IMG/VR virus record: IMGVR_UViG_3300021400_000138
Location: 32,001 to 96,000 of that record
Length of the DNA: 64,000 bases
Strand: one strand, 5' to 3'
Source of the DNA: a virus
Taxonomy: Duplodnaviria > Caudoviricetes
Both the position numbers and the translations under genes were made by a program. The notes beneath the pieces are model-generated. The model saw only the letters and a list, made by a program, of their open reading frames with translations. It did not search any database and was not told the origin of the DNA. The first letter of the stretch is position 1. Each line of letters opens with the position of its first letter. Below are positions 5,736 through 32,544 of the stretch, piece by piece.

Positions 5736-6992
5736 ATGCTAAAAACAAGAGACGAGCTGGACAAACATTTTGAAAGTGTAATTGTAAAGTACGCAGATGA
5801 TCCAAAGATCATGAGACGGATTGCGGATTATTGCTACGAAAATTTTGATCTTCCAAGAGCAAGAACAATGACAATTCTTGGTCTGAATGTTAGTATTCGT
5901 GAATGCAGCGAAAGCGAAATCTTTTGGATTCTTGTAGCCATGAATAATTATTCCGAGAGATGGAACCTAAAGATCTCTCAGTTCTTTACAGATACAGAAA
6001 TCAATGTCTATATGAAATCCAAAAATAATAACAACCCAATAGAATTTCCACTGAGATTTCCGATGATTCAAATAGCCGATGACCAGTGGATTGGGAAGAT
6101 AACGGCTAAGGAGCTTATTCGCCTCAGAAGGGCGGACATGATCACATATAACAAAAGCGCCCAACGTCGCGCCAAGACGATTGTACGGGGCGATAAGGAG
6201 TTTACAAGGCTAAATGTGATGGTCGGTGTCGTAAATAAAATTGCAGATTTATTAGTCAAACACAGATTTATATCAAACGCTATAACGTTAAATATACCTG
6301 ACGGAATGGCAGATTTCTTTTACGACAGTAAAAATAAAGAGTTGGTTATTAATAGCCTAAGATCATTTGATATCATAGATGGTTTTCACAGGTATGTTGC
6401 TATGTGTAATGTCGCCGATGAAAATATTGATTTTGATTATCCAATGGAACTTAGGCTTGTTGCTTTTTCAGAAGAGAAAGCTAATAACTTTATTTGGCAA
6501 GAAGAACAGAAGACAAGGATGCCAGTAATTGATGCCAAGTCATATAACATGAATGATCTGGCTAATAAGATTGCAAACAGAATTGCGGAATCGAGTATTT
6601 GCGCCTTAAGCGAAATCATTGATAGGAATGGACGAATACCTATTGGTCACCTGGCGTATGCAATTGATGGAATTTATCTTAAAAATATGCCAGAGGAAAA
6701 AAAGAAAACGGCTATTGTGGATGTTACTAAAGATATTATAGAAGATTTTAATATCTTAACTGACCATGATAGTAGCTTGTTGACAATGAATTGGAAAGTG
6801 TCTGATATTTATATTTGCATTAACGTATTCTTCTTAATGAGAAACAAGGACAAAAGAAAACTCTATGATAACTATGTGCTGGTAAGAGATTCAATAAAGG
6901 AAAATCCGATTGAAAAGAAATTTATGCTAAGTAATACCATTAAAAAGCAGATGCAAATAGTTGAGGCAATAATGGAGGATGAAGATGTATAA
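5736..6992 (+). CDS. DndB/ParB-like DGQHR-family protein (SPbeta YopQ/SroE-like)
   Basis: ITYNKSAQR, NAITLN and IIDGFHR motifs; lies between two integrase-fold genes. Confidence 0.75.
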   Translation: MLKTRDELDKHFESVIVKYADDPKIMRRIADYCYENFDLPRARTMTILGLNVSIRECSESEIFWILVAMNNYSERWNLKISQFFTDTEINVYMKSKNNNNPIEFPLRFPMIQIADDQWIGKITAKELIRLRRADMITYNKSAQRRAKTIVRGDKEFTRLNVMVGVVNKIADLLVKHRFISNAITLNIPDGMADFFYDSKNKELVINSLRSFDIIDGFHRYVAMCNVADENIDFDYPMELRLVAFSEEKANNFIWQEEQKTRMPVIDAKSYNMNDLANKIANRIAESSICALSEIIDRNGRIPIGHLAYAIDGIYLKNMPEEKKKTAIVDVTKDIIEDFNILTDHDSSLLTMNWKVSDIYICINVFFLMRNKDKRKLYDNYVLVRDSIKENPIEKKFMLSNTIKKQMQIVEAIMEDEDV

Positions 6993-7917
6993 TGAAAAGC
7001 AAAAGCTAAGGTATTTAAAAGATTGCGAGGGAGTATATGATGAGAGTACCATAAGAAATATTGTCAGCAAATTTAATGTTTGTGAATGGATAGAGATAGA
7101 AAGAGGGAAAGATATTTCTCTGTTTACAAAGTATGAAATTGACGATTATCTTTATACAGTAGGAATGAAGAGTTCTCCGGGATCTTTAGCAAGTATTGTT
7201 TCTTATTATTCTAAATATGTAGAGTGGTGTATTAACAATTCTTTGGTTCCAAGTGGAATTAATCATTTTGATGAAATTGTTGGTGAAAAGAAATTTGATA
7301 AGTATTTAAACAGAAGATTAACAAAGCGAAAATATATTACTCAAGGAGAATTTGATGATGTTTTAAATCGTATTCACAATCCCAGAGATCAATTTGTTTT
7401 ATGCTGCTTATATGAATTTGGAATTTCTCCAAACCAAGTGGAGATTATGAATATTCATTTTAGTGATTTTGATCTTAAAAACAATACAGTAAAATTGATT
7501 TCCGGAAGAGAACCGAAAGTATCACAAAAATTAATCCATTATGCAGAACTTGCAGATCAAGAACTTGAATATACAGTAGAAGTATATGATGGATCCTTTA
7601 GGAAATATAAACTTCTTGATAATGGTTTGGTATATAAAGATGTTGACTGGGGACCAATCAAGCCGAGTCCAAATGCTTCTCAGAGAATCTTCAAACTTCT
7701 ACGCCAAGTAAAGAAATCAACTGGATTGGATGATGCCGTCACAGCCAATAGTCTTTCTGATGCTGGATTTTTTATGTTTGTCGAATCAGAAGCAGAAAAA
7801 ATTGGAATAGATCCAATAGATTTCATAAAGGAAAATGAAGAGCTACTTATTAATCAGTATAACAAGAATACCGTAAGGGCATTAGTAATTTATAAAAAGG
7901 TAAAAGACCTGTTTTAA
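6979..7917 (+). CDS. Degenerate integrase-fold protein, probable master repressor (YopR/MrpR/SroF-like)
   Basis: MYNEKQKLRYL N-terminus; NPRDQFVLCCLYEFG with catalytic Arg replaced; no HxxR. Confidence 0.7.
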   Translation: MKMYNEKQKLRYLKDCEGVYDESTIRNIVSKFNVCEWIEIERGKDISLFTKYEIDDYLYTVGMKSSPGSLASIVSYYSKYVEWCINNSLVPSGINHFDEIVGEKKFDKYLNRRLTKRKYITQGEFDDVLNRIHNPRDQFVLCCLYEFGISPNQVEIMNIHFSDFDLKNNTVKLISGREPKVSQKLIHYAELADQELEYTVEVYDGSFRKYKLLDNGLVYKDVDWGPIKPSPNASQRIFKLLRQVKKSTGLDDAVTANSLSDAGFFMFVESEAEKIGIDPIDFIKENEELLINQYNKNTVRALVIYKKVKDLF

Positions 7918-8874: not shown

Positions 8875-9261
8875 TCATAACATCTCTTTTTCTAACGCTT
8901 TTCTAAGGGAATCCATAAATACCTGGCGGTAAGATTCCAGAAATATTTCTATTGTATTCTCTTCTATTGAGGTACCAGCCATGAGGGCAGGAGTTTTTTC
9001 TTTAACAAACTTTCGCAACTCTCTTTGATATGATTCCTCGTAGAAATCATCTCCTGGATCTGACACAGAATCATCGAAAAGAAATTCTTCAGTAACACAA
9101 AGTGCTTTGGCAAGTTTACGGATATTCTTCTTATGCGGTATTGCACCGAGTTTTTCATAAGAATGTATTGTTCTTTGGGATACGCCGATTTCTTCTGCCA
9201 GATCTGTTTGAAGTAATCCAAGGGAATTGCGGCAGAATTTAATCTTTTCTCCAAATGTCAT
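8875..9261 (-). CDS. XRE-family HTH repressor (ImmR-like)
   Basis: FGEKIKFCR...LQTDLAEEIGVSQRTIHSYE; aggagga RBS on the minus strand. Confidence 0.9.
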   Translation of the reverse strand: MTFGEKIKFCRNSLGLLQTDLAEEIGVSQRTIHSYEKLGAIPHKKNIRKLAKALCVTEEFLFDDSVSDPGDDFYEESYQRELRKFVKEKTPALMAGTSIEENTIEIFLESYRQVFMDSLRKALEKEML

Positions 9262-9394: not shown

Positions 9395-9423
9395 TTGACA
9401 AGATAATTTATAGGTGGTATCAT
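9395..9423 (+). promoter_or_regulatory. Divergent sigma-A promoter
   Basis: TTGACA - 17 nt - TATCAT with extended TG. Confidence 0.7.
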
Positions 9424-9482
9424 ACACGATGTAAAGAAGTTCAGATGATTGTATATGTGAATAATAAAAAAGGAAACAACAT

Positions 9483-9758
9483 ATGTGGATTATAAATTCA
9501 TCAAGAAACGTAGCTCTTAACGCAGCGGAGATTAAATCTTTACAAGTAAATCCATTAGATGAATCTGGATCATGTTTTATGGTGGAACCGGATGAAGTAG
9601 TAGCTTATGGAGTGTTTTCTGGCATCAATCTCATTGCTGGTCCATATAAGTCACAAGAAAAGGCAAACGGAGTTATGATAGATATTGTTTGCAGTGTTTA
9701 TAGAGAGGATCCGTTTTATTGTCCTGAAGCGGATTATAAGGTAAAGGAATATGCATAA
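9483..9758 (+). CDS. Hypothetical protein
   Basis: First ORF after the promoter, with RBS. Confidence 0.6.
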   Translation: MWIINSSRNVALNAAEIKSLQVNPLDESGSCFMVEPDEVVAYGVFSGINLIAGPYKSQEKANGVMIDIVCSVYREDPFYCPEADYKVKEYA

Positions 9759-9924
9759 GATATTTCAGGTATTCAAAAATATAAGGGAACTGTTTTGTAA
9801 GCATCAGTTTGAAAGATTATATATGGACGAAGACCCGAAGGCATTGGTTTATAAGTGTAAAAAATGTGGCCAGGTTGTTCGGGCGGAGATTTTTGGAAGA
9901 GAAAATATTAACTTCCGTGGATGA
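9751..9924 (+). CDS. Small Cys/His protein (FCKH...CKKCG)
   Basis: 57-aa ORF read manually; aaggaa RBS. Confidence 0.5.
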   Translation: MHKIFQVFKNIRELFCKHQFERLYMDEDPKALVYKCKKCGQVVRAEIFGRENINFRG

Positions 9925-10027
9925 TATTTATTAGATAAAGAGATGGGTCGCACCCATCGGAGTCAAGGGAGCGAAGTTCGCAGATTGGTTAACTTGATAA
10001 GGTGGTAAGTGGGTAAGCCGCCATTAA

Positions 10028-10167
10028 TGGGCGTTCGCCAAGAGGTAAGGCACAGCGCTTGGCAAAATAGTATAAGGTAAATACGCCGTATTAACGGAGA
10101 TATTTGTGCAAGGCAGATTTTTGCTAATGACCGCTGCATTTCATTGGTTCGAATCCAATACGCTCAG
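10028..10167 (+). tRNA. tRNA-Gln(UUG) interrupted by a 67-nt insertion (exons 10028-10060 and 10128-10167)
   Basis: Acceptor TGGGCGT/ACGCTCA; D arm GCC-AAGAGGTAA-GGC; anticodon stem CAGCG/CGCTG with loop CTT|TGAC; T arm ATTGG-TTCGAAT-CCAAT; U1-A72 and G73 fit Gln. Confidence 0.85.
10061..10127 (+). ncRNA. tRNA-like element nested in the tRNA-Gln anticodon loop
   Basis: GGCAAAA/TTTTGCT acceptor; GTAT-AAGGTAA-ATAC D arm; CCGT-ATTA-ACGG short arm; ATTTG-TGCAAGG-CAGAT T arm. Confidence 0.75.
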
Positions 10168-10342
10168 ATCTATAACTCATTTTTGTACCTCCAAATGACC
10201 AGTTTGGCGGATCTGGACAAAACCGCCATTTATAAAGAGGAAGCGAAATTAAAAAATATATGGTTTATTCTTTAGTAATCGAAGAATATGTGAATTGTTA
10301 ATAGGCAAAAAATGCCTGTGAATAATCTAATATGAAAAGAAA

Positions 10343-10900
10343 GTGATTAATTTGGAAGATAGAAATTTTGATGGGTTCGCTATTACAGATAAAGAGACAG
10401 GTGAAATAATCGCCGAAACAGATCCTGGTGATAAAATTAAAATTATCACATCAAAGCAATTGGATTATTTAACCGATCCAGGAAGAGATTTTAATAAAGG
10501 AAAAACATTTGTGAAATTATATGATGAAGTTATCCCGGATTTAGTAGAGCATCTTAGTGGCACAGAATTGAAATATGTTATATCTATGGCACAACATGTT
10601 TCATATAAAGATTGTGTACTTAGAAAGACAAATAATAATTTAAGCGAACCTATTAGTGCAAGTGAATTTTGTAAAATTCATAATTATAATTATGAAACTG
10701 GAAGAAAGATTTTTAACTCTTTAAAGAAAAAAGGAGTAATAGCATATGTAGAAGTTGGTACTGTATTTCCTGATTATATCGGAAGAGTTAATAAAATGTT
10801 TTTAGTTAATCCTTATATCTATTTCAGAGGATCAGATATAAATGATACAGTAAAAACTATTTTTGATGAATCTGGATGGAAAGAAAAACTAAAAAAATAA
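10343..10900 (+). CDS. RepL-like winged-HTH replication/maintenance protein
   Basis: TDKETGEI, FVKLY, LKKKGVI and VNPYIYFRG resemble Firmicute RepL. Confidence 0.55.
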   Translation: MINLEDRNFDGFAITDKETGEIIAETDPGDKIKIITSKQLDYLTDPGRDFNKGKTFVKLYDEVIPDLVEHLSGTELKYVISMAQHVSYKDCVLRKTNNNLSEPISASEFCKIHNYNYETGRKIFNSLKKKGVIAYVEVGTVFPDYIGRVNKMFLVNPYIYFRGSDINDTVKTIFDESGWKEKLKK

Positions 10901-11067
10901 TAAGATAGATATAAGAGAGTACGAATTACATTTTCCTCATTACTACGAGATTTTTAATCAATTAAGGTGGTCAAAAATTTCCCATATAGAGGGGTATAAA
11001 TTTTCCCATTTGGTAAATACACGCACATAAAAGGAAAATAATTCCGTGTTATTTAATTGAGGTAAAT

Positions 11068-11865
11068 ATGAGTAAGAGAGTAATAAGAAGAAATATATTC
11101 GAGTCTAACAGCTCGTCGCAGCATTCAATCTGTGTTACCAAACGAGATGTCCACGTTGATCCAGAGGAATTTGATTATCACAGCGAAAAGTATCCGCACC
11201 CTGATGAATATCTTTATCTCTGGAATGGAAAGTTAGAAGTAAGAGACGTTGATGATGGATATGGTCGTTGGCCTTTTCAGATGTTAACGACATTCAAGGA
11301 TAAACTTCAATACGCTATCTGCGAGTTTCTTGGATACAAGTACTGTGACGATGATGACTATGATGATATCTTAGAAGAATTCAATGATATCTGCCGAGAA
11401 GTTGTTCCTGGATTCGAGAGTCTAAAATTTCATACCCACGATGTAGATATTTATCTCGATGAAAATGGAGATCCTATCCCTAGAAGAGAATTAGAATATG
11501 AAGGATGGGATGAGGAAAATCATAGAGATATTTATTCTTATCTGGACGAAGACGGAAATAAAAAATCGGCGATATTTGACGAGAAGAATTACTACGAAGT
11601 TCCCGCAATCGGAACGATTGATCATCAGAGTGCTGGGTTGCTTACGAATTTCTTGAAGGATAAGGGAATTTCGCTTAAGGAATTTTTGACGAACAAGAAA
11701 TACGTGGTTATTATTTCTGGTGATGAAGAACAAAAATGGGAAGAGTATAAGAGATCGGGTATGATCGATCTTGATTTTATTGTTGAAGAATATGACAGAT
11801 CAGGCGAAGATGTTGAATGGGAACAGTGGAAGGAGGAACACAGAGATGAAGAGAGTGATACGTAA
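11068..11865 (+). CDS. Acidic protein with N-terminal IRRNIFESNSSSQHS motif (paralogue 1)
   Basis: ORF with gaggt RBS; shared N-terminal motif. Confidence 0.75.
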   Translation: MSKRVIRRNIFESNSSSQHSICVTKRDVHVDPEEFDYHSEKYPHPDEYLYLWNGKLEVRDVDDGYGRWPFQMLTTFKDKLQYAICEFLGYKYCDDDDYDDILEEFNDICREVVPGFESLKFHTHDVDIYLDENGDPIPRRELEYEGWDEENHRDIYSYLDEDGNKKSAIFDEKNYYEVPAIGTIDHQSAGLLTNFLKDKGISLKEFLTNKKYVVIISGDEEQKWEEYKRSGMIDLDFIVEEYDRSGEDVEWEQWKEEHRDEESDT

Positions 11866-12304
11866 AGATGTGTGGGAATCCAATTCATCTTCAGTGCATA
11901 GCTTACAGATTTCTTCTGATGGAATGGAACCAAGCAAGCTTCCAGTTGATAAAGATGGATATATAACCGTTAAATACGGCGAATTCGGTAAGGATGGAAC
12001 TGTTTATTCGTCCCAGGAAGACAAATTGTCTTATCTTGTTACTCAATGTTATTATCTTGGTGGATGGGAATATGACATAAATAGAGATAATAATTACCAC
12101 TTCAGAAATATCGAAGACGCAATCATTGATTATACTGGTGCAAAGGGAATTAGAATTGTTGGTGGCGAACCTGATATAGATCATCAAACGGTTAGCCAAA
12201 TGGGTTACGACGGCATGCATCTTATTCAGAATGAATGGGACGAAAAGGAAATTCAGAGTTTTGTTTTCAACAAATATATAAGTTTGTTATGTGATTGTGA
12301 TTGA
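11846..12304 (+). CDS. Acidic protein with N-terminal IRKDVWESNSSSVHS motif (paralogue 2)
   Basis: ATG 11846 after aggagg; shares KLxY and IDHQ with paralogue 1. Confidence 0.75.
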   Translation: MKRVIRKDVWESNSSSVHSLQISSDGMEPSKLPVDKDGYITVKYGEFGKDGTVYSSQEDKLSYLVTQCYYLGGWEYDINRDNNYHFRNIEDAIIDYTGAKGIRIVGGEPDIDHQTVSQMGYDGMHLIQNEWDEKEIQSFVFNKYISLLCDCD

Positions 12305-12312
12305 GGTGAACA

Positions 12313-12741
12313 ATGAAAAAAGTAATTAGAAATGGTGTATTCGAGACAAATTCATCAACTCAGCATACTTGTGTGATTATGACCGAAGAACAGGATGAGA
12401 AATGGGAAGAAGAGAACCTATATTATTACGGAAAGGAATATTGGAATCGTTTTAAAAAACTTCCGGAAGATAAGCAGCCTAAAGCTGGAGGCTTATATAC
12501 AAAAGATGAAGTTTTAGAATTTTATAAACTTATTGGATATGAACCAGATCCAGAGATATATAGTCCAGATGAAGATGATGAAGAAAATGATGTAAATGAT
12601 ATTTTTATAAAAGAGATGGATGATTTTATTAGTTATGAAGACTGGGGTAACAGTGAATATCTCGAATATGATACCAATTACTACACGACTCCTGGCGGCG
12701 AGAAGATAGTAGTTAAATGTAAATATGGATATGATGGTTAA
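12313..12741 (+). CDS. Acidic protein with N-terminal IRNGVFETNSSTQHT motif (paralogue 3)
   Basis: gaggtg RBS; shared motif. Confidence 0.75.
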   Translation: MKKVIRNGVFETNSSTQHTCVIMTEEQDEKWEEENLYYYGKEYWNRFKKLPEDKQPKAGGLYTKDEVLEFYKLIGYEPDPEIYSPDEDDEENDVNDIFIKEMDDFISYEDWGNSEYLEYDTNYYTTPGGEKIVVKCKYGYDG

Positions 12742-12750
12742 GGAGAAGAT

Positions 12751-13650
12751 ATGGCCTGGGGCGTTTATAGAAATGGAAACTCAATTACAAGAATCAATCT
12801 CGAAGACGGTACAAAAATAAGAGAAACAAAAGATGATGAATTTGATCTTGATTTCCCAGAATCAATAGACCTGAATATAGGAACTAAGTGTGATGGCGGA
12901 TGCAGGTTCTGTTACATAAATGCGTCACCAAATGGAATTGATGCAGATCTTTTAAGTGTACCATTCATTAATACTTTGCATCCCTATACTGAATGCGCCA
13001 TCAATGGTAATTCAATTGATCATCCGCAGCTTATACCATTTTTGGAAAAACTGAAATCTAAAAATGTAATTGCCAATATTACAGTAAATCAAATTCATTT
13101 TGAAGCAAAGGAAGATATTATAAAAGATCTCGTTGATAAGGATTTGATAAAGGGAATTGGAATTTCTTTAAGGGATCCTACTTCAGAATTTATTAAACGA
13201 GTAAAGAAATATCCAAACGCAGTGCTACATGTAATTAATGGAATTTTCTCCCCCGAAGATATAGAAGCTACAAGAGATCAGGGGCTAAAGATATTAATTC
13301 TTGGTTATAAAAATCTTGGTCTCGGCGTTAGTTATAAAGAGAAGAATGATTATCTGATTAAGGCGAGACAGAAATATTTATATGATGTTCTTGAAACGCT
13401 GCCGAATCATTACAAGTGCTTGTCGTTTGATAATTTAGCCCTGGAGCAACTTGATGTAAAACGGATTCTTACTCCTGAAGAATGGGATGAGATCTTTATG
13501 GGCGAGGAAGGAACATCATCTATGTTCATTGATCTCGTCACAAAAAAATTCGGAATTAGTTCTCTGGCTTTAGAAGACGAAATGATGCCGATGCTAAATA
13601 ATATTCGAGATATGTTTCAGATTGTGAAAAGTAAAGCGAGGGAAATGTAA
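12751..13650 (+). CDS. Radical SAM protein
   Basis: CDGGCRFCY (CxxxCxxC). Confidence 0.85.
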   Translation: MAWGVYRNGNSITRINLEDGTKIRETKDDEFDLDFPESIDLNIGTKCDGGCRFCYINASPNGIDADLLSVPFINTLHPYTECAINGNSIDHPQLIPFLEKLKSKNVIANITVNQIHFEAKEDIIKDLVDKDLIKGIGISLRDPTSEFIKRVKKYPNAVLHVINGIFSPEDIEATRDQGLKILILGYKNLGLGVSYKEKNDYLIKARQKYLYDVLETLPNHYKCLSFDNLALEQLDVKRILTPEEWDEIFMGEEGTSSMFIDLVTKKFGISSLALEDEMMPMLNNIRDMFQIVKSKAREM

Positions 13651-13651
13651 T

Positions 13652-14059
13652 ATGGGTCTTGATATGTGTTTGCTCAAAAGAAAAAAGTTCCGAGAGAATG
13701 ATGATGCATATAATGCTTTAGCTAGAAAAGCTTCGGAAGAGTTGATGCATTGGGGCAAAGCAAATCAAATTCGGCAGTGGTTTGTAAATCATACGGAACT
13801 TCAGCGTAGTGATAATAATAGATATATTCCTTTAGCGAAAGAAACATTGATTTCACTAAGAGATGATTGCAATAAGGTGTGTGCCAATCATGAACTAGCA
13901 GAAGAATTAATGCCAACTTCATCTGGATACTATTTTGGCGCTGCTGATTATGATGATGTGTATTTTTCTCGATTAGAATATACGGCTGAATGCATAGATG
14001 AAATATTAGAATACGTTGATTTTGAAACAGAAGATATTGACTATTATGAAAGCTGGTAA
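13652..14059 (+). CDS. Conserved phage hypothetical protein (MGLDM...WGKANQI...YYESW)
   Basis: ORF starting immediately after the radical SAM gene. Confidence 0.65.
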   Translation: MGLDMCLLKRKKFRENDDAYNALARKASEELMHWGKANQIRQWFVNHTELQRSDNNRYIPLAKETLISLRDDCNKVCANHELAEELMPTSSGYYFGAADYDDVYFSRLEYTAECIDEILEYVDFETEDIDYYESW

Positions 14060-14094
14060 ATAAACGTTTGGCGGAGTTCGTAAACCGCCAACTT

Positions 14095-14176
14095 GCGGAT
14101 ATGATGGAATAGGAAGACATCGGGAACTTAAAATTCTCGGGCAAAAGCCGTGAGAGTTCGATCCTCTCTATCCGCA
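14095..14176 (+). tRNA. tRNA-Leu(UAA)
   Basis: GCGGATA/TATCCGC acceptor; loop CTTAAAA; long variable arm; GAGAG-TTCGATC-CTCTC. Confidence 0.9.
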
Positions 14177-14182
14177 TTTGTA

Positions 14183-14498
14183 CAGTTGACAAAGTAGAAT
14201 GCTGAAGGCCAAGGTGTTTGAAATGTTATATGTACAAAGGAAACGCGAGTGTACATAGCGATTCCAAAATCTCTGGAAAGATGCTTTAGAAAGAGATTCT
14301 TTTGTTCAACAAATTTTACAACTGAATATTGAATTTATGTTGGATCAGATGCAAAAGAAACTATAAACAGCTGAGAAATATTTGTTACTATGAAACTATG
14401 TATATATTACACACAGAATTGAAAAGACCTATTAACCACCCCGAGTGATTACGTCTTATTGTAGATTCTTTTGACTTCAAATTTGTATCTGATGCCAA
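14183..14498 (+). ncRNA. Unassigned structured RNA(s) between tRNA-Leu and tRNA-Ile
   Basis: No ORF; closing helices cagttg/caactg and ttggatcagatgcaaa/tttgtatctgatgccaa. Confidence 0.45.
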
Positions 14499-14501
14499 TA
14501 T

Positions 14502-14576
14502 CCGCCATTAGCATAGTTGGTATTATGCAGTCGCCTTATAAGCGAAAGATGCCCTGTTCGATCCAGGGATGGCGGA
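14502..14576 (+). tRNA. tRNA-Ile(UAU)
   Basis: CCGCCAT/ATGGCGG acceptor; loop CTTATAA; CCCTG-TTCGATC-CAGGG. Confidence 0.85.
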
Positions 14577-14579
14577 TTT

Positions 14580-14870
14580 GCTAGAAAGAGCAATGATCGT
14601 ATATCAGGTCTAGTCAGTTTGGTGAAACGATATATCCGCTGACCTTTCTAGCACGGGCTTATCCGAATTACTTAATTAGCGATGACGGCAACATAATAGA
14701 GAATTCGGTACGGCAGTTCTAAATCCTGGATAAGCACGGGACCTGGTTGCCAAGGTTAATATAAGAACTTCTGTATACGCATTGAGTATCTGCTGCTTCT
14801 GACGAGGAGTTGGATGTGGTGGGCTACGGAAACCAATCAAAGATGTTTTGCGTAAGGTAGTTGGAAGTAG
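14580..14870 (+). ncRNA. Unassigned multi-domain structured RNA downstream of tRNA-Ile
   Basis: Helices gctagaaag/ctttctagc, gcttatcc/ggataagc and tacgca/tgcgta; no + strand ORF. Confidence 0.45.
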
Positions 14871-14892
14871 CGGGGAAATTTGAGGAACGTAT

Positions 14893-15588
14893 ATGAACAA
14901 GCGAATCAAAAAGAAAAAACGAAATCAGTATCTTACTGGTACTGCAAAAGAAAGAAAATATAATCAATGGCTTTGCAAGAGATATCCCTTTCTCATTCCA
15001 AGATATGTGTGGACAGATAAGATGTCTTGGACTAGAGAAAAATACTACGCAAAAGTCCATGGCCATAAAGAATATGATCAGTTCAAGAGATTTTCTTATA
15101 CACTCGCCGAGGATTTTATGCCAGGTTGGTGGAAAACATTTGGATTGCTGCTTTGCGAAGAGTTACGAGAAGATCTGATTAAGTGTAAATATCTATATAA
15201 GTTTCGGTTTGTTCAAATAAAAGAGAAATACGGATCCGCGAGAATGTATTGCAACGGCGCTCCAGTAGAATCCAATGCGTTTGAAATTATTGATAAATAT
15301 GAATATATTTCAAATTATGTGTGCCAGTACTGTGGGAAGCCCGATGTTGCTCAAATAAATGACGGTTGGGTAATGACAATCTGTGAGGATTGCTACAATA
15401 AGATGAATCGCAGGAGAAAAAAGTATTTTAATCCTGTTCCATATGCGGAATTACTTGATGAAGACGAAGATTATACAATTCCAAATAAGCGAATAGTAAA
15501 AAGATACTCAAAGGAAGGAGATGAAATAATCGAGTACGACATTTCCGAAACTGTAAACGCCATCAGAAACAATTGGAGGGAGAGATGA
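14893..15588 (+). CDS. Phage hypothetical protein (QIKEKYG motif, Zn finger)
   Basis: CQYCG...ICEDC. Confidence 0.65.
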   Translation: MNKRIKKKKRNQYLTGTAKERKYNQWLCKRYPFLIPRYVWTDKMSWTREKYYAKVHGHKEYDQFKRFSYTLAEDFMPGWWKTFGLLLCEELREDLIKCKYLYKFRFVQIKEKYGSARMYCNGAPVESNAFEIIDKYEYISNYVCQYCGKPDVAQINDGWVMTICEDCYNKMNRRRKKYFNPVPYAELLDEDEDYTIPNKRIVKRYSKEGDEIIEYDISETVNAIRNNWRER

Positions 15589-30497: not shown

Positions 30498-31655
30498 ATG
30501 AAATCTAAAATACTTGAGTTGATAAAAATAAATCCTGATTGGCAGAAGATTCTGGAAGATAAGAATATCAAAATCAAAATAGATATTGATAATCTGGCGA
30601 TTTTTAACTATGGAATTGACGTTGATCCATTCGATCCATATGTTAAAGAAGCCAGGGGAATCATTATTGATTTAGACAATCTCTCGGTTGTATGCTGGCC
30701 TTTTACTCGATTTTATAACTCGCACGAAGAGGCTGCACAGGAAGATGTGGCGAACTTTGATTGGAATCATTGTCGAGTAGAAAACAAAATTGATGGCAGT
30801 ATTTGTAAGCTCTTCTATCGACCGTATAAGGGTGCATTGGCAATTGATCTTGGAATTGATGGCTACTGGTCATGGGCAACAAATTCATGTATCAATGCTT
30901 TCGATGCACCAATCATGGGATCTAAGAAATCATTTGGCGAGGTTATTGAATCTGCTGTGAATTTCAAAGATATTCCGTTTGATGAGCTTGATAAAGATTG
31001 TACATATATTTTTGAATTGGTTAGTCCATTAACTCAGGTTGTGGTTTCATATCCTTATACAAAGCTTTATCATATAGGAACCAAAAACAATATTACGGGC
31101 GAAGAATACAAGATTAACATCGGGATTGACTGGCCCAAGGTTTATGATCTGCATAGTTTGAAAGATTGTCTGAATTTTGTAGATCATATTAACGACGGTC
31201 TTGATCATGTCGAATGGGAAGGGTTTGTTGCAGTTGATAAAGATTGGCACAGGTTGAAGATAAAAAGCCCCGCATATCTTGAAGCACATTATATATTCGG
31301 GAATGGTAATTGTTCCAAAGAACGATTGTTAAAACTCTTGGATGATTATGGTCTGACTAAGCTGACTAATCTCAATCCAAGCATGTTTGTTCAGTTGAAG
31401 TATTATGATTATCGTAGAACTGAACTGGAATATATTGTATCTCAGTATATATCTTATGTCAGAGGATTATATGAAGAATATAATCACGATAGAAAAGCCG
31501 TAGCTAATCAAATCAAAACTGATAAACTCGCTCCGTTTGGTTTCGCTGCAATTGGAAATGATAAAGCAGCAGAAAAGCTGCTGTTAGATACTCGAAGAAA
31601 AGTTATTGCAGATCTGTTGCCTAATTATGAAAGTAGAGATATGTGGAGGATGTAA
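30498..31655 (+). CDS. RNA ligase, T4 Rnl1-like
   Basis: EARGII, PFTRFYN, KIDGS (motif I), FELVS, EGFV and KIKS. Confidence 0.85.
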   Translation: MKSKILELIKINPDWQKILEDKNIKIKIDIDNLAIFNYGIDVDPFDPYVKEARGIIIDLDNLSVVCWPFTRFYNSHEEAAQEDVANFDWNHCRVENKIDGSICKLFYRPYKGALAIDLGIDGYWSWATNSCINAFDAPIMGSKKSFGEVIESAVNFKDIPFDELDKDCTYIFELVSPLTQVVVSYPYTKLYHIGTKNNITGEEYKINIGIDWPKVYDLHSLKDCLNFVDHINDGLDHVEWEGFVAVDKDWHRLKIKSPAYLEAHYIFGNGNCSKERLLKLLDDYGLTKLTNLNPSMFVQLKYYDYRRTELEYIVSQYISYVRGLYEEYNHDRKAVANQIKTDKLAPFGFAAIGNDKAAEKLLLDTRRKVIADLLPNYESRDMWRM

Positions 31656-31656
31656 T

Positions 31657-32544
31657 ATGTTAAAAGAACCAACACTTGTGCTTTTATGCGGCCTCCCTGG
31701 TTCTGGTAAAAGCAATTATGCTAAATCAATTGCTGGTGATCATCCGGAATATGTTATTCATAGTTCTGATGCTCTGCGCAAAGAAATGTTTGGCGATGAA
31801 AATTGTCAGGATGACGGCGATAAAGTGTTCACTGAACTTCACAGAAGAATAAAAGAAGACCTCCGCAATGGCAAGAGTGTTATCTATGACGCTTGTAATG
31901 TTCATTCCAAAAGGCGCATGGCTTTTCTTCGTGAACTGAAGAACATTAATTGCAGTAAAGAATGTCATATCATTGCTACACCTTATGAGATTTGTCTCCG
32001 CAATAACTGGATGAGAGAGCGGAAGATACCAGACGAAGTTATCTATCGCATGTATACCAACTGGCAGACACCTTGGTATTTTGAGGGATGGGATTACATA
32101 AAGGTCATTAATAATTATATTGATTATCACAGATCTATTTTATATGAGGGCCTCGTATATTATAACCAGGGCAATCCTCATCATACAAAAACCCTTGGTG
32201 TCCATATGCTTGCAGCAAAAGAATATATGCGTAGTCGGGGTGGTGATGAGATCATGATACTTGCTGCTACGTGGCACGATTGCGGGAAGTGTTTTACACG
32301 TTCTGTTGGAGAAGATGGTGTTTGTCATTATTATAATCATCACAACGTTGGAGCATATGATGCATTATCTTTATATGATCTTCCTCTTGAAGTGTCTGCG
32401 TTGATTACATATCATATGGCACCATTCTTCTGGGATGCTGATAAAAATCCCGAAAGATTGCATGATAAATATAGACATCTTTGGGGTGATAGTTTTTATA
32501 ATAAGGTGATGTTGCTCCACGAAGCAGACGTTGCGGCGAGGTAA
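31657..32544 (+). CDS. Polynucleotide kinase (AAA_33) fused to HD phosphoesterase (RNA end-healing)
   Basis: GLPGSGKS, SSDALR, NPHH...H, WHDCGK and ADV. Confidence 0.85.
   Translation: MLKEPTLVLLCGLPGSGKSNYAKSIAGDHPEYVIHSSDALRKEMFGDENCQDDGDKVFTELHRRIKEDLRNGKSVIYDACNVHSKRRMAFLRELKNINCSKECHIIATPYEICLRNNWMRERKIPDEVIYRMYTNWQTPWYFEGWDYIKVINNYIDYHRSILYEGLVYYNQGNPHHTKTLGVHMLAAKEYMRSRGGDEIMILAATWHDCGKCFTRSVGEDGVCHYYNHHNVGAYDALSLYDLPLEVSALITYHMAPFFWDADKNPERLHDKYRHLWGDSFYNKVMLLHEADVAAR

Follow-up and report, generated by a model that had tools for sequence, protein, structure and literature searches.

A tRNA-Gln(UUG) gene of an uncultured phage (positions 10028-10167 of the window) carries, between anticodon bases 34 and 35, an insert of 67 nt that is itself shaped like a tRNA. 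We conclude with high confidence that this is a real, conserved and mobile insert in a tRNA-Gln gene that looks live. It is one of 13 distinct inserts identified in uncultured phages—11 in tRNA-Gln and two in tRNA-Asn—and we propose, with a probability of about 0.5 and from sequence comparison, that these constitute a family of mobile mini-tRNA introns that would be excised by RNase P and RNase Z and sealed by a ligase.

The interrupted tRNA-Gln gene

The window, the whole stretch of 64,000 nt that was analysed, corresponds to positions 32001-96000 of a virus record (G000) that is complete, is 185,390 bp long and has direct terminal repeats. Its G+C content is 33%, the + strand holds most genes, and the standard code suits the half of the genome that contains it. 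The nested tRNA-Gln lies in an early-looking region, where it adjoins a repressor-like gene (8875-9261) and an MrpR-type recombinase gene (6979-7917); a further tRNA of the window is listed in Table 1. The segment 100000-185390 of the record is open only with TAG as a sense codon (ORF cover 0.36-0.75 rises to 0.71-1.0), there is a CUA-anticodon tRNA in the 100-185 kb part, and the late half contains group I introns, three of which are above the Rfam gathering score.

The 5' exon contributes the 5' strand of the acceptor, the D arm, the 5' strand of the anticodon stem (CAGCG) and C32 U33 U34; the 3' exon starts with U35 G36 A37 C38, continues through the 3' strand of the anticodon stem (CGCTG), the variable loop and the T arm, and ends with the 3' strand of the acceptor and the discriminator G10167. 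CCA is not encoded, the next bases being ATC. U1-A72 and G73, both expected in a tRNA-Gln, are present in the body, and the 5' exon matches the tRNA-Gln of L012 and L013 at 92.6% over 27 nt. ARAGORN with default settings called no tRNA at this position in the genomic stretch, and the gene was also missed by an Rfam scan at the gathering score. When 10061-10127 is deleted, ARAGORN calls a 73-nt tRNA-Gln(ttg); the first-pass annotation of this DNA, which had predicted such a product with the loop CUU/UGAC and suggested this run on the spliced sequence, is borne out, and the uninterrupted alleles agree.

With introns allowed, ARAGORN reports an interrupted gene with a 67-nt intron, placing the junction one base rightward and giving UGG/Pro. 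The uninterrupted tRNA-Gln genes at the same locus (L012, L013, L014 and L015) have loops reading [A/C]TTTGAC, and for this reason the junction 10060/10128 and the anticodon UUG are correct and the UGG of ARAGORN is not. CTTTGAC is recreated only by removal of exactly 10061-10127, which leaves CAGCGCTTTGACCGCTG across the spliced anticodon-loop junction; the other junctions initially allowed for do not yield the loop of the uninterrupted relatives and can be set aside. The stems of these relatives differ from those of the window by paired changes (CAGCG/CGCTG versus CAGGA/TCCTG and CTGG/CCAG).

The same 140-nt nested gene is present in L188, an independent Logan assembly, with one substitution, A10126 to G, at the first base of the insert tail. 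Contigs from other samples encode an identical downstream 185-aa protein, and L188 extends upstream from there to the nested gene. Misassembly, which would have disposed of the first-pass proposal, is thereby rejected.

Directly after tRNA-Gln, L188 and L186 also have an odd tRNA-like gene of 89 nt (GGCAACATAGCTTAATGG...), which the Rfam tRNA model scores at 43 bits; its D loop is expanded by 19 nt and its anticodon loop has 8 nt. The window is without this gene, which is thus a presence/absence polymorphism among isolates of the window phage; the same gene in L001 follows a different, uninterrupted tRNA-Gln.

Table 1. Coordinates of features in the window and in other records, with lengths and 3' tails of the inserts.
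Feature	Record	Coordinates	Strand	Basis or remarks
5' exon of tRNA-Gln(UUG)	window	10028-10060	+	ARAGORN on joined exons; aligned to uninterrupted alleles
tRNA-shaped insert, 67 nt	window	10061-10127	+	Rfam tRNA model; family model R1; covariation; L188
3' exon of tRNA-Gln(UUG)	window	10128-10167	+	Sequence; ARAGORN on joined exons; aligned to uninterrupted alleles
tRNA, Ile-type, anticodon UAU	window	14502-14576	+	Loop CUUAUAA; Rfam 51.6 bits, missed by ARAGORN
Rnl1-type RNA ligase, candidate sealing enzyme	window	30498-31655	+	Pfam RNA_lig_T4_1, 42.2 bits (cut-off 28.3)
P-loop kinase + HD protein, adjoins ligase	window	31606-32544	+	Pfam AAA_33 77.8 bits; HD 20.8 bits, just below cut-off
Insert in tRNA-Gln, 67 nt	window, L188			Tail AA, GA
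Insert in tRNA-Gln, 57 nt	L018			Tail CC
Insert in tRNA-Gln, 57 nt	L136/L152/L155			Tail TA
Insert in tRNA-Gln, 57 nt	L156			Tail TC
Insert in tRNA-Gln, 64 nt	L147			Tail TC
Insert in tRNA-Gln, 67 nt / 61 nt	L158 / L160			Tail C
Insert in tRNA-Gln, 65 / 68 / 63 nt	L135 / L146 / L154			Tail ACCA
Insert in tRNA-Gln, 48-nt minihelix	L164			Tail GCCA
Insert in tRNA-Asn(GUU), 65 nt	L136/L155, L137/L138			Tail T
tRNA-Gln locus, empty	L137	3715-3830	-	Uninterrupted tRNA-Gln
tRNA-Gln locus with insert	L136	6215-6380	-
tRNA-Gln locus, broken	L138	7791-8366	-	With surrounding 700 nt; broken after base 32 by HNH-like ORF
tRNA-Gln 5' half	L094	91-111	-	Stops after CACAGG
Free-standing copy of insert family	L164	1963-2038	+	R1 44 bits; ends ACCA; un-nested, in tRNA array
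89-nt tRNA-like gene	L188	580-681
89-nt tRNA-like gene	L186	1-100
89-nt tRNA-like gene	L001	849-937
Second insert kind	L118	717-832	-
Second insert kind	L121	1982-2100
Second insert kind	L056	11132-11246	-
Second insert kind	L092	2058-2178
Second insert kind	L061	6711-6834	-
Second insert kind	L119	2876-3006	-
Second insert kind	L073	7531-7654
Second insert kind, perhaps	L007	4039-4154
tRNA-Leu(UAA), 185-nt insert at 34/35	L015	1429-1699		ARAGORN call only; possibly small group I intron
tRNA-Asp(GUC), 485-nt ORF-bearing insert in anticodon loop	L046	77-637		ARAGORN call only
GOLLD-like RNA	L018	466-922	-
GOLLD-like RNA	L136	4582-5040	-
Group I intron	G000	162436-162781	-
Group I intron	G000	138279-138669	-
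Group I intron	G000	124708-124982	-

A family of tRNA-shaped inserts

The first-pass annotation described the insert as a cloverleaf with a shrunken anticodon arm, and both parts of this description are upheld. The Rfam tRNA model RF00005 matches 10061-10126 with 36.8 bits (E 3.7e-5; gathering score 29) and finds the acceptor, D and T arms, and R1, a covariance model built for the family, gives the window insert 59.1 bits. The acceptor (10061-10067/10119-10125) has 7 bp, its terminal pair being a G1.U72 wobble; the D arm spans 10070-10084, and the T arm (10102-10118) has the loop TGCAAGG, with G55 in place of U55. In the place of the anticodon arm is a mini arm (10086-10097; CCGT-ATTA-ACGG) of 4 bp with the loop ATTA, seen both in the sequence and in the Rfam alignment, where a decoding tRNA has a 5-bp stem and a 7-nt loop; in the inserts of relatives this arm has 3-5 bp or is absent. 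The tail after the acceptor consists of two bases, A10126 and A10127. Minimum free energy folding was not significant against shuffles for either the insert (z -1.2) or the whole gene (z -0.9), and since neither folds better than its shuffles the cloverleaf is unsupported by thermodynamics alone. We consider it real from the covariance model together with covariation in the relatives. The 185-kb genome contains the insert only once, and its identity as a repeat or MITE was rejected on that ground.

Over the full cloverleaf, 90% of cells are paired among six inserts, versus 69% in shuffles. For the acceptor and T stems alone, aligned across twelve inserts, 93.1% are paired, the figure falling to 59.6% in shuffles and to 37-50% with a slid partner strand; 11 of the 12 pairs change on both sides (covariation score 0.96 versus 0.26). 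All 12 aligned inserts have the 7-bp acceptor, the 5-bp T stem and the 7-nt T loop. The conserved unit is an acceptor/T-arm minihelix, with D and middle arms that are variable or, in the 57-nt type, missing. The proposal had been made to depend on conservation of the insert structure in homologues; the two stems do covary, and uninterrupted alleles exist. In about 1.36 Mb of phage DNA, R1 matches only these inserts and one free-standing copy, and the DNA scanned is rich in tRNAs, ARAGORN calling 569 in 1.14 Mb of it. The free-standing copy is in L164, which also has one further insert, a 48-nt minihelix in tRNA-Gln.

A pattern for the 5' half of tRNA-Gln was found at 117 viral loci, of which 112 are intact tRNA-Gln genes and one (L018) is interrupted; further members came from gap patterns and the insert motif in viral and metagenome collections, the records being from IMG/VR, JGI, ENA and Logan. 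Phage contigs that are unrelated to each other thus share such inserts, which are found in two tRNA species (Gln and Asn), and some of the inserts, taken by themselves, are recognized by the Rfam tRNA model (33.8 bits for the L135 insert and 36.2 bits for the tRNA-Asn insert of L136). No interrupted tRNA was present among 21 pattern hits in bacterial genomes: these are ordinary uninterrupted tRNA-Gln genes in which the pattern matched downstream by chance, and bacterial carriers were accordingly rejected. These 21 genes, mostly of Lachnospiraceae, are nearly identical to the phage exons, a similarity that points to Clostridia-type hosts. A DNA search of a phage collection for close relatives of the window phage gave no match, and nothing was found in a viral contig collection scanned with the neighbouring proteins, DNA polymerase III and the exact junction pattern. 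Distant homologues of a neighbouring gene (L016 and L017) lie in unrelated contexts and were rejected as relatives.

A second kind of insert, 33-58 nt long and not tRNA-shaped, was observed in other phage tRNAs, within the anticodon loop or close to it (Table 1); its members share a hairpin followed by ACAGCAAT. Two longer tRNA interruptions, one of them ORF-bearing, were called by ARAGORN in L015 and L046. GOLLD-like RNAs adjoin tRNA arrays with nested tRNAs in L018 and L136, with matches of 104-106 bits (E about 1e-27) that are under the Rfam gathering score of 150. A link between GOLLD and nested tRNAs was considered and has no support. No GOLLD match was listed at E <=1 in window positions 9400-15000; other parts of G000 were scanned at the gathering score only, which the L018 and L136 matches themselves fall short of.

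Junctions and the 3' tail

In 13 of 13 inserts the 5' junction lies right after a U and before base 1 of the 7-bp inner acceptor stem, which is anatomically an RNase P-type site; RNase P prefers U at position -1. The 3' junction follows a tail of 4, 2 or 1 nt after the same stem, and the inner tail has the CCA style of its genome. Contigs with NCCA tails encode CCA in 30 of 31 ordinary tRNA genes and in all four outer tRNA-Gln genes; those with short tails (1-2 nt) encode it in 4 of 77 ordinary tRNA genes and never in the outer gene, and CC occurs at positions 74-75 in none of the CCA-less members.

RNase Z cuts CCA-less precursors directly after N73 and is inhibited by CC after the discriminator (PMC7479834); in CCA-bearing precursors the cut falls directly after CCA and leaves a 3'-OH (PMC7479834; PMC1540738). 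The 3' junction coincides with these published sites in L135, L146, L154 and L164 (NCCA) and in L158, L160 and the three Asn loci (1 nt). The 2-nt tails (window, L188, L018, L136, L156 and L147) end one base beyond the published site, and the caveat of the first-pass annotation that the UUG product needs a 3' cut one base past the discriminator is correct: were the window RNA cut right after the discriminator, one base too many would remain and the loop would have 8 nt. No single rule places the 3' junction in the whole family: a constant spacing, be it measured from the inner stem or the outer anticodon stem, suits some members at most. Whether N73 pairs with U-1 or with G1 tells nothing, since every base can pair with one of the two.

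If RNase P and RNase Z made these textbook cuts throughout, the product would be an altered decoder, with either an 8-nt loop (CUUAUGAC, junction CAGCGCTTATGACCGCTG) or, when RNase P cuts at -1, an altered anticodon (AUG in the window, CUG in L018, L156 and L147). The RNase Z site directly after N73 in CCA-less precursors (PMC7479834) speaks for this reading, as does U10060, which can pair with A10126 (G in L188) and could shift the RNase P site. We nevertheless consider it quite unlikely. Its products would vary from member to member, whereas a canonical loop results from exact excision in 13 of 13 members, and His codons would be misread by a Gln body bearing AUG. The tail is moreover the most variable part of the insert—the sole difference between the window and L188, and CC, TA or TC among otherwise identical 57-nt inserts—so its bases are unlikely to belong to a mature anticodon loop; base 74 is C, A and C in the near-identical L018, L136 and L156.

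Mobility at the tRNA-Gln locus

An orthologous locus that shares its upstream flank among contigs was found in three states. It is empty in L137; in L136, L155, L152, L156 and L018 a 57-nt insert lies exactly between CTT and TGAC; and in L138 the gene is broken by an HNH-like ORF (Pfam HNH 20.3 bits, under the cut-off of 21.4), after which comes a second, different and intact tRNA-Gln(UUG). Because the same locus is found empty, filled or HNH-broken, the insert is mobile. On the evidence of these alleles, the anticodon-loop DNA of the tRNA-Gln gene is a target of homing-endonuclease traffic, and an insert at this point would destroy the homing target site. The insert probably persists because it interrupts a tRNA-gene site attacked by phage homing endonucleases while the tRNA stays usable. 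The inserts of L018, L136 and L156 are identical over 55 nt, and the greater conservation of the insert than of the surrounding exons suggests a recent spread. In L094 the tRNA-Gln 5' half gives way to an apparent ORF (ATGACAAAAGAATTG...), and the locus ends early; the same site may have been disrupted here once more.

Protection of the DNA site could suffice as an advantage, and the HNH-like gene disrupts that very site in L138. The insert might accordingly never be removed, being selfish DNA or a scar of homing-endonuclease immunity in a dead tRNA-Gln gene, with RNase P and 3' processing at most freeing an inner mini-tRNA and two dead halves. The host would then supply tRNA-Gln, and Lachnospiraceae genomes do hold near-identical uninterrupted genes; the misfit of the 2-nt tail with the published RNase Z site is also in keeping with this explanation, which we regard as unlikely. 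The exons argue against it. In every carrier they remain perfect cloverleaves, with differences that are compatible with structure (G-C to G.U, loop positions), and conservation covers the exons and the insert stems but not the tail bases, which vary freely. A tRNA-Gln(UUG) is retained at this locus in every relative, no second one was found in G000, and L136 has both its Gln and its Asn tRNA interrupted, with no spare copy in the 12.6 kb examined.

Candidate enzymes and proposed removal of the insert

The genome of the window phage encodes a candidate sealing enzyme, an Rnl1-type RNA ligase that matches the T4 RNA ligase 1 structures 2c5u and 5tt6 (E 2e-5). Its neighbour, a kinase-HD protein, is likely from its domains to be an RNA end-healing enzyme. 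The complete genome of L135 has an Rnl1-type ligase with an RlaP-like neighbour, so that an Rnl1-like ligase is present in both complete genomes with nested tRNAs, a co-occurrence based on two genomes; three half-complete contigs have an RNA-ligase-like ORF at sub-threshold scores only. RtcB, RNase Z, a CCA-adding enzyme and EndA (PF01974) were searched for in the genome of the window phage and none was found, and all steps except sealing would therefore need host enzymes.

We propose the following sequence of events. The transcript would fold with the insert as an acceptor/T-arm minihelix; host RNase P would cut before G10061, leaving the 5' exon as ...CUU-3'OH, and a host tRNA 3' endonuclease of the RNase Z type would cleave past the short tail, so that the 3' exon begins with 5'-P-UGAC.... 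The tRNA halves would remain paired through their acceptor and anticodon stems, and the nick in the anticodon loop would be sealed by an RNA ligase, for which the phage Rnl1-like enzyme is the likeliest candidate, the predicted 3'-OH and 5'-P ends being directly ligatable without healing. Support for such end processing comes from the 5' junction at acceptor base 1, the conserved minihelix, the CCA-style tails and the phage Rnl1-like ligase. The first-pass annotation had proposed excision by tRNA-processing enzymes followed by ligation; the junction anatomy, the style of the tails and the ligase favour it in part, whereas the 2-nt tail sits uneasily with the RNase Z site, and G55 in the T loop and the terminal G.U pair also count against it.

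Since ends made by RNase P and RNase Z need no healing, the kinase-HD neighbour is unexplained by this model, and the ligase cassette may serve only counter-defence. The presence of a healing enzyme next to the ligase is what would be expected if another endonuclease of phage or host, for example one like an anticodon nuclease, left 2',3'-cyclic-phosphate and 5'-OH ends at both junctions for the kinase-HD protein to heal and the Rnl1-like ligase to seal, after the manner of T4 Pnkp/Rnl1 repair; the tRNA shape would then mainly hold the exon ends together or serve the excised RNA. Tails of 1, 2 or 4 nt, with no fixed distance, are also awkward for a single measuring enzyme. This explanation is nonetheless unlikely: no candidate nuclease was found and the phage has no EndA, Rfam ribozymes gave no match at E <=1, and both the 5' junction at minihelix base 1 and the CCA-style tail would be left unexplained.

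Excision by RNase P and an RNase Z-type enzyme remains our preferred reading also when set against the idea of an RNA that splices or cleaves itself, be it a small ribozyme or a degenerate group I intron. The insert does follow a U in the anticodon loop, the site of bacterial group I tRNA introns, and group I introns occur elsewhere in the same genome. A catalytic origin is nevertheless highly improbable, given that the conserved features are tRNA stems and not a catalytic core, and that no group I or small-ribozyme match was found by Rfam in 9400-15000 at E <=1 (all five Intron_gpI hits in G000 lie elsewhere). The first-pass annotation was right that the insert is too short for a group I intron and lacks a terminal G, being only 67 nt long with A10127 as its last base. 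As there is no ribozyme core in the insert, excision would fall to proteins or to RNase P.

Implications and comparison with known systems

We would put at a shade below even odds the wider claim that these inserts represent a distinct class of mobile tRNA intron, spliced with neither a ribozyme nor a splicing endonuclease: a mini-tRNA would act as a decoy that RNase P and the tRNA 3' endonuclease cut out, the anticodon loop would be closed again by an RNA ligase, and the driving force would be conflict with homing endonucleases directed at tRNA genes. If true, this would be a third, so far undemonstrated route of tRNA splicing, native to bacteria and their phages; phage RNA ligases would gain a housekeeping role beside counter-defence, and tRNA genes missed by standard annotation (ARAGORN with default settings, Rfam scan at the gathering score) would be accounted for. 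The tail rule indicates which enzyme is worth trying at the bench, and the three-state locus points to tRNA genes as battlegrounds of phage homing endonucleases.

The prevailing view is that tRNA introns in bacteria belong to the self-splicing group I kind and that protein-mediated tRNA splicing is archaeal and eukaryotic. Like group I tRNA introns, the inserts lie in the anticodon loop after U, show presence/absence polymorphism and are linked to homing endonucleases at the same DNA site; they differ in having neither a ribozyme core nor a terminal G, and in size (67 nt versus roughly 200 nt or more). With the archaeal and eukaryal introns removed by EndA or TSEN, and sealed by RtcB or Trl1, they would share a cut-and-seal process in which the tRNA body holds the exons. 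No bulge-helix-bulge, in which a 4-bp helix lies between two 3-nt bulges of opposite strands and the cuts fall within the bulges, is formed, however: by inspection, the two insert junctions lie opposite one another in an internal loop of 3 x 6 nt between the anticodon stem and the insert acceptor stem, made up of CUU and AAUGAC, without staggered bulges, and the phage has neither EndA nor RtcB. The ends predicted here are 3'-OH and 5'-P, not cyclic phosphate and 5'-OH. No tRNA splicing endonuclease of the EndA/TSEN type is known from bacteria.

Recruitment of RNase P and RNase Z by a tRNA-shaped module has its counterpart in MALAT1 mascRNA, where such a module within a longer RNA is cut at both ends by the two enzymes. 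Plant mitochondrial t-elements (PMC1920247) are alike in this respect. In both of these cases the flanks are not rejoined, whereas here rejoining would be the essential step. A sealing step of the kind proposed resembles the T4 Pnkp/Rnl1 system, which repairs tRNA-Lys cut by PrrC. There, the damage comes from the host, the ends are cyclic phosphates and nothing is removed; here, an Rnl1-type phage ligase would likewise act on an anticodon-loop nick, with the nick coming from excision of the insert.

The closest precedent is in the Lak megaphages, whose tRNAs contain introns described as 'enigmatic', for which no mechanism was offered (Devoto et al. 2019, Nat Microbiol, PMC6784885, Fig. 4); we found no other description of nested or tRNA-like introns in phages in the literature. 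The first-pass annotation had taken the splicing route to be undescribed, which is fair for the mechanism and not for the intron type, already remarked upon in that study. Lak introns have alleles with and without the intron, and the insert is almost identical across samples (PMC6784885), just as near-identical inserts are shared here by L018, L136 and L156. The Lak phages are 540-kb phages of Prevotella with the intron in tRNA-Thr, whereas the window phage has a 185-kb genome and a Lachnospiraceae-like tRNA-Gln, and the tRNAs interrupted here are Gln or Asn. Devoto et al. (2019) described the Lak introns without a structure test, a junction rule or a mechanism; this kind of intron has barely been described before, and new here are the covariation across the family, the rule that links the tail to CCA style, the locus with its three states and the 2-nt tail.
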